Positions 60,122 through 60,192 of a stretch of DNA of 64,000 bases are shown piece by piece. The DNA is taken from positions 36,334,001-36,398,000 of the forward strand of contig CM119371.1 in assembly GCA_051294905.1 (NCBI GenBank), read 5' to 3'. Origin of the DNA: Botryllus schlosseri. Lineage: Eukaryota. Made by a program: the position numbers and the translations under genes. The notes below the pieces were generated by a model. That model ran no database searches and was not told where the DNA came from. It worked only from the letters and a program-made list of their open reading frames with translations. The first letter of the stretch is position 1; each line of letters opens with the position of its first letter.

Positions 60122-60192
60122 TGGAGACTACGGGAATTGAACCCGTATCTTCTATTTGCAAGACAGATACTCTACCATTGAGCTAAGTCCCC
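60122..60192 (-). tRNA. tRNA-Ala(UGC), 71 nt, inside the Polinton
   Basis: GGGGACT-TA-GCTC-AATGGTA-GAGT-A-TCTGT-CTTGCAA-ATAGA-AGAT-ACGGG-TTCAATT-CCCGT-AGTCTCC-A; all stems pair; G3:U70 and A73 Ala identity; TTTT 4 nt downstream. Confidence 0.9.

Follow-up and report, generated by a model that had tools for sequence, protein, structure and literature searches.

An alanine tRNA gene carried by Polinton lineages of Botryllus schlosseri

Polintons (Mavericks) are regarded as a widespread DNA virus family of animals and protists in its integrated form, and their accessory genes are poorly known. What, then, does a complete transfer RNA gene do inside one of them? The question is raised by a 64,000-nt stretch of the Botryllus schlosseri genome (assembly GCA_051294905.1, contig CM119371.1, positions 36,334,001 to 36,398,000 of the forward strand), hereafter the window, where a Polinton copy contains, at 60122..60192 on the minus strand, a tRNA-Ala(UGC) gene of 71 nt. 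The anatomy, position, copy distribution and conservation of this gene were observed directly. Our assessment is that it probably encodes a functional tRNA, transcribed by RNA polymerase III (Pol III) and chargeable by alanyl-tRNA synthetase (AlaRS), which a clade of Polintons would keep as cargo in a module of apoptosis- and ubiquitin-related genes.

Anatomy and distribution of the tRNA-Ala gene

ARAGORN called a tRNA-Ala(tgc) at 60121-60192 on the minus strand as the sole tRNA in the window, and the Rfam tRNA model RF00005 matched 60122-60192(-) over its full length (model positions 1-71) with 73.4 bits (E 3.5e-14, gathering score 29), the only Rfam family above its gathering threshold there. 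Together with the alignments of copies, these calls delimit a full-length cloverleaf of 71 nt. All seven acceptor-stem pairs form, G3:U70 included. This pair and the discriminator A73 are the alanine identity elements; position 3:70 is G:U in all 12 rows of our alignment, and A73 is invariant. The anticodon lies at 60158-60160(-), the variable loop has 4 nt, and CCA is not encoded in the gene. An A-box-like TAGCTCAATGG (60175-60185(-)) and a B-box-like GGTTCAATTCC (60133-60143(-)) fit what we take to be the A-box and B-box consensus, and a T4 run of the Pol III terminator type (60114..60117(-)) begins 4 nt past A73. With internal boxes and a T run of at least 4 nt, the window copy has the make-up of a eukaryotic nuclear tRNA gene (Pol III type 2). 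The minimum free energy (MFE) fold of the family-1 tRNA (families are defined below) (-22.8 kcal/mol, z -2.85) comes near a cloverleaf except for its anticodon stem, which is shifted; this says little, since host tRNAs likewise do not fold into a cloverleaf by MFE. The flanking genes are convergent, because ORF113 (an open reading frame, ORF, of no known family) runs on the plus strand and a ubiquitin-conjugating enzyme (E2/UBC) gene on the minus strand. An earlier note, made from the letters alone, had described a complete tRNA-Ala(UGC) gene inside a Polinton, with a 71-nt cloverleaf, G3:U70, A73, A and B boxes and a TTTT terminator, in the gap between convergent genes. Each of these features was seen again, the gene calls and the Polinton genes, terminal inverted repeats (TIRs) and target-site duplication (TSD) confirming the whole; the strand of the tRNA, left unstated in that note, is minus.

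A 211-nt query comprising the tRNA and its flanks was searched against the 495-Mb assembly and returned 26 places, all 26 of which were scored: 13 matched over full length at 93-100% identity and 13 over the tRNA only, at 82-86%. ARAGORN found tRNA-Ala(tgc) in all 12 sister loci of the window copy. Nine are identical to the window over 71 nt, and L010, L012 and L013 differ at 2, 3 and 3 positions, respectively. The downstream T run is T4 in 11 of the 13 family-1 copies and T3 in L012 and L013.

To which elements these places belong can be read from the packaging ATPase. The genome is rich in Polintons: there were 227 first-look ATPase candidates, and among the best 150, which were scored, most had open frames. 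By ATPase there are at least four Polinton families, with approximately 91-100%, 73%, 63-68% and 48-51% amino acid identity to the window's ATPase (families 1 to 4). Among the 14 family-1 ATPase genes (91-100%), 13 have the tRNA-Ala approximately 8 kb downstream (12 kb in one copy), so that the presence in sister copies, on which the earlier note had made its reading depend, holds for 13 of the 14 ATPase-bearing copies; the 14th (contig C22) is rearranged, with TIR and left-end sequence at the expected tRNA place. Twelve of the 13 tRNA-only matches lie each 7.4-8 kb from a family-2 ATPase (73%), a spacing approximately as in the window, and the remaining one lies beside a third-lineage ATPase (L022, 67%), where tRNA-Ala and a tRNA-Pro stand back to back. 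Since every tRNA-only match adjoins a Polinton ATPase, this type of tRNA-Ala is Polinton-borne at all 26 places, approximately 7.4-12 kb from a packaging-ATPase gene. Ten loci each of families 3 and 4 were scanned with ARAGORN from +3 to +13 kb of the ATPase start; tRNAs were found in one of the ten family-3 loci (L022) and in none of the ten family-4 loci.

The second Polinton-borne tRNA, tRNA-Pro(UGG), was seen at L014:714-785(-) and at six further family-2 loci, as well as at L022:6939-7010(+); in each of the seven family-2 loci examined it lies approximately 0.7 kb from tRNA-Ala. RF00005 scores are 67.4 and 64.4 bits for the family-2 tRNA-Ala, below the 73.4 of the window, and 61.1 and 58.1 bits for tRNA-Pro(UGG), the five Polinton tRNAs of three lineages all scoring 58-73 bits. 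Rfam, with the E-value limit relaxed to 1, disclosed no decayed second tRNA in L001 (family 1) or in L031, a close sister of L022. One family-2-type tRNA-Pro pattern match (C9:5684444-5684478), approximately 10 kb away from an ATPase of family 1, has no partner among the listed family-2 ATPases and may represent a fragment or nested element. Of the words sampled from the 1.8-kb stretch that runs from the caspase-like gene through the tRNA to E2, 77-87% recur in contig sets X12-X15, which carry three other organism labels. Near-identical copies of the family-1 Polinton thus occur under other species labels, and on word matches alone neither shared ancestry nor transfer can be claimed.

Host-type tRNA genes were identified by a sequence pattern search of the assembly. 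The tRNA-Ala(UGC) pattern gave 37 matches, 25 Polinton-linked and 12 host-type, the latter G+C-rich and mostly clustered on contig C6. The host-type genes are 62-74% identical to the Polinton types, whereas the Polinton types are 79-88% identical across families; the comparison with host genes suggested in the earlier note therefore sets the tRNA-Ala apart from the host type. No Polinton-type sequence was present among the 35 AGC and 13 CGC host pattern matches. For tRNA-Pro the matches were 15 host-type, 11 family-2-type and one L022-type. The family-2 tRNA-Pro shares 88-89% identity with a host tRNA-Pro gene, from which it differs by U73 for C73 and A38 for U38. In the anticodon loop, A38 is common to both Polinton tRNAs, in contrast to U38 in every host gene seen, and tRNA-Ala differs further by C32 in place of the host's U32. 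Loci L014-L020, with 86%-identical tRNA-Ala and a tRNA-Pro, had been considered as host genes and were rejected, each lying beside a family-2 Polinton ATPase.

Selection on the RNA and competing explanations

Between families 1 and 2, the tRNA-Ala is 86.5% identical, coding DNA 73-74%, and intergenic DNA does not align. Between family 1 and L022 the corresponding values are 82% for tRNA-Ala and 67% for the caspase gene, again with unaligned intergenic DNA; between family 2 and L022, tRNA-Pro is 90% identical over 63 nt and coding DNA approximately 76% over one 62-nt stretch, with intergenic DNA unaligned. The anticodon UGC, G3:U70, A73 and a downstream T run of 4-6 nt are present in all three lineages, and the 5' GGGG of tRNA-Ala is invariant. 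In a cloverleaf alignment that includes host rows, pairing is kept in 96.4% of 252 cells and both sides have changed in nine pairs, which 0-1 of 500 shuffles match; with the rows restricted to the eight from Polintons, the values are 94.6% of 168 cells and three such pairs. The earlier suggestion that the AU-rich stems still pair, and that selection may act on structure, is in line with these values: the stems keep pairing through change. Two of the three pairs changed on both sides in the Polinton rows lie in the T stem of L022 (49:65 from A:U to G:C, 51:63 from G:C to A:U), and family-2 tRNA-Pro differs from its host counterpart by two compensatory double changes in the acceptor stem, at 2:71 and 3:70. 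By eye, family 1 has A15 with U at the end of the variable loop and family 2 has G15 with C, which fits a kept Levitt pair, in an alignment made uncertain by a loop-length difference. As far as sequence comparison goes, these patterns favour selection on a decoding tRNA over neutral carriage.

Several observations weigh against a functional tRNA kept as cargo. Within family 1, the tRNA has 0-3 changes per 71 nt vs. approximately 1-5% in the flanks and is thus no better conserved, in copies that are too alike (96-100% in the tRNA) for within-family conservation to be informative. Stem-breaking changes number two in L012 and one in L013, both with T3 downstream and both among the three most diverged copies. 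The covariation among Polinton rows alone is modest, 14 of 500 shuffles reaching three both-sided pairs, and pairing fails in 9 of 168 Polinton cells, for the most part at 6:67 and 27:43 of family 2. The slot of the tRNA is not fixed: the convergent gap is taken by tRNA-Pro in family 2, with tRNA-Ala upstream of E2. L031 has 957 nt of other DNA in place of the 296-nt tRNA segment of L022, the two being 97-98% identical on both sides of it; hence Polinton tRNAs can be lost. The host already has 12 UGC, 35 AGC and 13 CGC alanine tRNA genes (pattern matches). Codon usage gives no sign of a need: GCA makes up 27% of alanine codons in family 1 and 13% in L022, vs. 15% in tRNA-less family 3 and 32% in tRNA-less family 4 (ORFs of at least 150 aa from family loci, which may include a few non-element ORFs), and neither GCA nor CCA is enriched in tRNA-bearing compared to tRNA-less Polinton families of the same genome. 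Simple supplementation for GCA codons, one of the two roles the earlier note had proposed, is thus unsupported. Finally, no read fell on tRNA-Ala in three poly(A)-type RNA-seq runs (X24, X17 and X20). X24 and X17 gave no reads on the stretch; X20 gave 82, of which 77 were placed only partly, mostly on the E2 exon with fixed differences, and most of the reads ran into unlike sequence. Because of the fixed differences and the partial placement, these reads probably come from a related gene. Poly(A)-type libraries rarely show tRNAs, so that zero reads on the tRNA amount to no verdict on expression.

Could the tRNA-Ala be the head of a dispersed tRNA-derived short interspersed nuclear element (SINE), or a host tRNA gene that merely chances to sit in the element? 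With 36083 first-look tRNA-like candidates in the genome, tRNA-derived repeats may be common; against this, no SINE body, tail or private TSD accompanies the gene, as the earlier note had remarked, and the flanks are element sequence in all 13 family-1 copies. All 26 scored places adjoin Polinton ATPases (13 in family 1, 12 in family 2 and one of the L022 type), and the pattern search, with its 25 Polinton-linked and 12 host-type matches, disclosed no copy of this type outside Polintons. This explanation is highly improbable and, barring diverged copies missed by the searches, already refuted. That a tRNA gene captured once has been copied along without use, intact only because its copies are young, is a view we consider unlikely. 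It draws on the near-identity of the family-1 copies (96-100%), the stem-breaking changes and shortened T run of the older ones, the loss in L031, and the absence of a codon-usage signal and of reads on the tRNA. It does not account well for a tRNA that is 82-88% identical across families whose ATPases are 67-73% identical, whose coding neighbours are 67-74% identical and whose intergenic flanks no longer align, nor for the anticodon, G3:U70, A73 and T run kept in three lineages and the compensatory changes in the L022 T stem and the tRNA-Pro acceptor stem.

Two further explanations give the gene a role other than decoding. tRNA genes can act as barriers and roadblocks in yeast and mammals, and a TFIIIC- and Pol III-bound gene might block Pol II read-through or shield the cargo from silencing chromatin, the RNA being secondary; we hold this to be improbable, and the same applies to its supposed benefit, less antisense RNA and double-stranded RNA between packed, partly convergent genes. 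The placement of the genes speaks for it. In family 1, which has no tRNA-Pro, tRNA-Ala sits in the convergent gap behind the E2 gene, exactly between the convergent poly(A) signals at 60052-60057(+) and 60228-60240(-); in family 2 it is tRNA-Pro that sits in this gap, and tRNA-Ala lies 24 nt behind the previous ORF and 69 nt upstream of the E2 start; in L022 tRNA-Ala starts 35 nt past the stop of an inhibitor-of-apoptosis (IAP) gene, on the opposite strand, with tRNA-Pro beside it, also in opposite orientation to tRNA-Ala. A boundary, however, needs only the A and B boxes, whereas conservation here extends to the anticodon, the alanine identity pair and the pairing of acceptor and T stems; boundary and decoding roles are also not mutually exclusive. 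The other explanation is a non-decoding small RNA: an inhibitor resembling the adenovirus virus-associated (VA) RNA, a source of 5' tRNA-Ala halves (GGGG) that repress translation, or a tRNA that damps caspase activation driven by cytochrome c, in concert with the apoptosis genes next to it. tRNA halves with a GGGG start repress translation, and tRNA binds cytochrome c; the invariant 5' GGGG and a cargo module with caspase-like protease, BIR/IAP, Bcl-2 and E2 genes speak for such a role. But GGGG is required for the G3:U70 identity anyway, and the conserved anticodons, UGC here and UGG in the proline tRNA, point to decoding. The VA RNA family RF00102 had no match above its gathering threshold in the window, and L001, L014, L022 and L031 had none even with the E-value limit relaxed to 1. 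In gammaherpesvirus TMER units, pre-miRNA hairpins stand between a tRNA-like head and the Pol III terminator; the terminator here begins 4 nt after the discriminator and leaves no room for hairpins as in those tRNA-miRNA units. We therefore rate a small-RNA role as very doubtful, and the VA RNA analogy drawn in the earlier note is unsupported, the RNA being a canonical 71-nt tRNA with alanine identity elements and an anticodon kept in all lineages.

Under the reading we prefer, that of a decoding tRNA, transcription, charging and a benefit to the element are what we infer from these observations. The A and B boxes inside the gene would recruit host TFIIIC, TFIIIB and Pol III to transcribe tRNA-Ala, with termination at the T4 run; the transcript would be trimmed by the host's RNase P and RNase Z, the host CCA-adding enzyme would complete it, and host AlaRS would charge it through G3:U70 and A73. 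The charged tRNA would decode GCA, plus GCG by wobble. The gene is probably long-standing cargo that Polinton lineages have inherited or passed between them and that selection on the RNA maintains; it was probably not captured recently from the tRNA-Ala genes of this host. Its most likely use would be in securing alanine decoding (in the sister lineages, also proline decoding) during expression of the element, whether as an addition to the tRNA pool or as a substitute for host tRNAs lost in infection or stress. By analogy to phages, the tRNA-Ala and tRNA-Pro with their altered anticodon loops might serve as counter-measures rather than codon supplements, usable when, in infection, stress or apoptosis, the host cuts or modifies its own tRNAs or ceases to make them. 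The tRNAs share their cargo block with the caspase-like, IAP, Bcl-2 and E2 genes, which on this tentative and rather unlikely proposal would hold off cell death, itself a conjecture of the same low standing. The loop differences number two or three positions, which is no proof, and drift may explain them.

The carrier element and its cargo module

The Polinton copy (family 1) occupies 34576..64000(+) and extends 391 nt past the window end. It has the long TIRs, 5'-AG...CT-3' termini and 6-bp TSD that are hallmarks of Polintons. The left TSD copy, TGCATT, lies at 34570..34575 and the right one 392-397 nt beyond the window end, so that in the window and its 10-kb continuation (L021) TGCATT directly flanks both termini (AGTAGTATATAAG... 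/ ...CT). The TIRs are approximately 430 nt long, with 146 nt at 100% and the remainder at 97% identity, and end in AGTAG...CTACT. The outer part of the left TIR (34576..34721(+)) is 100% complementary to the right end; repeat and TIR analysis shows it to be split from the inner part (37151-37429(+)) by an insertion with inverted ends of its own (34722-37150). The right TIR begins in the window at 63953..64000(-) and continues to 64391 of the extended sequence. The insertion in the left TIR is one of three nested insertions in the window copy. Another, of 3.6 kb with 130-nt inverted ends (46987..50626, arms 46987-47116 and 50497-50626), splits the polymerase gene, and the third, of 2.2 kb (60645..62842), interrupts the E2 gene and is private to the window copy, its sisters joining 60644 to 62843.

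An integrase and a packaging ATPase, again hallmarks of Polintons, are both present: a retroviral-type integrase at 53662..54420(+) (PF00665 rve, E 4.4e-13) and an A32/FtsK-type ATPase at 52151..52771(+) (PF04665 Pox_A32, E 2.3e-10). The protein-primed family B polymerase (pPolB), split in the window copy, was recognised by motifs and by Atlas neighbours. Its translated N-terminal piece (44605..46989(+)) has exonuclease-type motifs and a frame that ends at the nested insertion, and its C-terminal piece (50662..52122(+)) has a VSR-like start followed by KMCGNSAFG and LDTDS, which we take to be the exonuclease-type and the KxxxNSxYG and DTDS-type motifs of such polymerases. Neither piece matched PF03175 in the Pfam scan, and comparison with PDB sequences gave no useful match. 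Among the Atlas neighbour clusters of the C-terminal piece, however, PF03175 DNA_pol_B_2 occurs in 86% of the members of row 2 (score 0.90), 93% of those of row 3 (score 0.88) and 16% of those of the top-scoring row. The start of the C-terminal piece (50662-50850(+)), where the nested insertion lies, is Vsr-like, with a weak Pfam match to a Vsr-superfamily restriction endonuclease (E 0.063).

ORF comparison points to a candidate major capsid protein at 56777..58055(+), in two frames in the window copy. In the other families it is a single ORF of 419-425 aa, and it is conserved in all four families. It has no Pfam match, and its Atlas neighbours carry PF21738 DJR-like_dom in only 15-30% of members, which is below the usual level for recognition and serves as a lead only. 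An AlphaFold2 model of the 425-aa form, built from a 9-row alignment, had a low mean pLDDT of 37.8. Two relatives of this candidate in IMG/VR (L047 and L048) carry no tRNA. No Pfam match to an adenain-type protease was found among 24 ORFs scanned, a scan that included no profile or fold search aimed at adenain. Two adjacent ORFs of no known family, 54804-55634(+) and 55631-56380(+), are paralogues of each other, and family 4 has three matches in tandem (L032:188-1523); they may encode minor capsid or spike proteins.

The right end of the element holds the compact cargo module, and in its short intergenic spacers the tRNAs are always found. Common to the tRNA-bearing lineages are a caspase-like protease, E2 and BIR/IAP proteins and, in family 2, a Bcl-2 protein. 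The caspase/metacaspase-like protease (Peptidase_C14, 58870..59610(+), PF00656, E 2.4e-13) keeps the His/Cys dyad context in translation (FVGHG, AQCYSG). It is followed by ORF113 (59696..60037(+), stop at 60035-60037), which has a family-2 homologue at 45-47% amino acid identity and whose AATAAA is read at 60052-60057(+). On the other side of the tRNA, two overlapping AATAAA of the E2 gene lie in register at 60228..60240(-), 36-48 nt upstream of the tRNA 5' end in an A/T-rich stretch. The C-terminal part of E2 follows at 60302..60644(-) (PF00179, E 2.1e-24, stop at 60302-60304). In copies without the 2.2-kb insertion E2 is a single uninterrupted ORF, and its family-2 homologue has 156 aa (E 1.9e-48). 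ORF108 (63153..63479(-)), of no known family, is homologous at 30% amino acid identity to the family-2 ORF just upstream of tRNA-Ala. An ORF with a BIR (inhibitor-of-apoptosis) domain lies at 39142..39495(-) (PF00653, E 7.2e-11); L022 encodes a BIR/IAP protein with three BIR stretches (5542-6735(+)), and the Bcl-2 family protein of family 2 is at L014:1934-2452(-) (E 1.1e-20). The main family-3 elements do not have the cargo module, no caspase or E2 match being found in L023. Outside the element, the window contains an exon that encodes a fibrinogen C-terminal domain and probably belongs to a host gene (12424-12834(-)), and a retroelement reverse transcriptase/RNase H in two frames (16166-18139(-)).

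Virus-borne tRNAs elsewhere and the meaning of the Polinton tRNAs

A virus-borne tRNA is a known kind of gene. In the parts of the literature available to us, polinton-like viruses and virophages come closest: like this Polinton they are small (approximately 20 kb), capsid-encoding dsDNA elements with one or a few tRNA genes, and 558 tRNA matches were reported in 8300 of their genomes, for which codon compensation or protection against tRNA depletion was proposed (PMC12220804). Their hosts are protists, the tRNA examples are for His, Leu and Arg, and most are not bona fide Polintons (PMC12220804). The carrier described here differs in being a Polinton with pPolB, rve and A32 genes, TIRs and a 6-bp TSD in an animal genome, with Ala(UGC) and Pro(UGG) tRNAs in three diverged lineages. 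The statement of the earlier note that tRNA genes are not a standard Polinton feature consequently needs to be narrowed: they are already reported in polinton-like viruses and virophages (PMC12220804), and what stands is that for tRNA genes in animal Polintons/Mavericks we found no report in a full-text literature search, which did not cover subscription papers. Among mid-size linear dsDNA viruses, a figure legend marks predicted tRNA genes by yellow flags in some MELD viruses with other replicases (Fig. 6 of PMC8502044). These come from non-animal eukaryote datasets and have non-PolB replicases, and in the part of the paper seen their tRNAs are flagged without discussion (PMC8502044). Polintons with a VSR-domain polymerase (pPolB2) are described from marine molluscs and a marine nematode (PMC10748475). 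The window polymerase resembles them in being missed by PF03175 and in having a putative Vsr-like stretch between polymerase motifs, and the word "tRNA" occurs 0 times in the main text of that paper (PMC10748475).

Adenoviruses are mid-size linear dsDNA viruses related to Polintons, and their VA RNA I and II genes are, like the tRNA-Ala, Pol III genes with internal boxes. VA RNAs are imperfect hairpins of approximately 160 nt and are not aminoacylated, unlike a 71-nt canonical cloverleaf with alanine identity elements. Some phage tRNAs have been proposed to escape host tRNA nucleases via anticodon-loop changes (PMC10264068, PMC11555353). They and the Polinton tRNAs are alike in being virus-borne and in differing from host isoacceptors; unlike them, the Polinton tRNAs have a eukaryotic host and would be transcribed by Pol III, and no tRNA-cleaving defence is known for this host. 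The 36-nt tRNA pattern had 0 matches in IMG/VR and 0 in 185,579 prokaryote species genomes. Its sole metagenome match (L049:512-583(+)) lies in a tight, unrelated-looking array of five tRNAs on a contig of 1152 nt, in the order Arg-ACG, Ala-UGC, Arg-CCG, Arg-UCU and Arg-CCU; this tRNA-Ala is 85-86% identical to the family-2 Polinton tRNA-Ala (host genes 62-74%) and shares its U6/U67 mismatch.

What is unusual here is the presence of the tRNA in three Polinton lineages, its proline companion and a copy number exceeding that of the host type by 26 to 12. With 26 Polinton-borne tRNA-Ala(UGC) genes vs. 12 of the host type, viral cargo can inflate or change routine tRNA gene counts and estimates of the tRNA pool in such genomes. 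Because many positions tell the Polinton tRNA from its host isoacceptors, among them C6:G67, A15, U25, U27, C32, A38/A39 and the 4-nt variable loop, its expression and charging are directly testable by tRNA sequencing. Should the counter-measure proposal be true, eukaryotes would have a counterpart, driven by Pol III, of the phage tRNAs that escape immunity directed at tRNAs. A tRNA kept in three lineages, together with a second tRNA and with cell-death and ubiquitin genes, suggests that these Polintons invest in controlling the translation and survival of their host, as larger viruses do.

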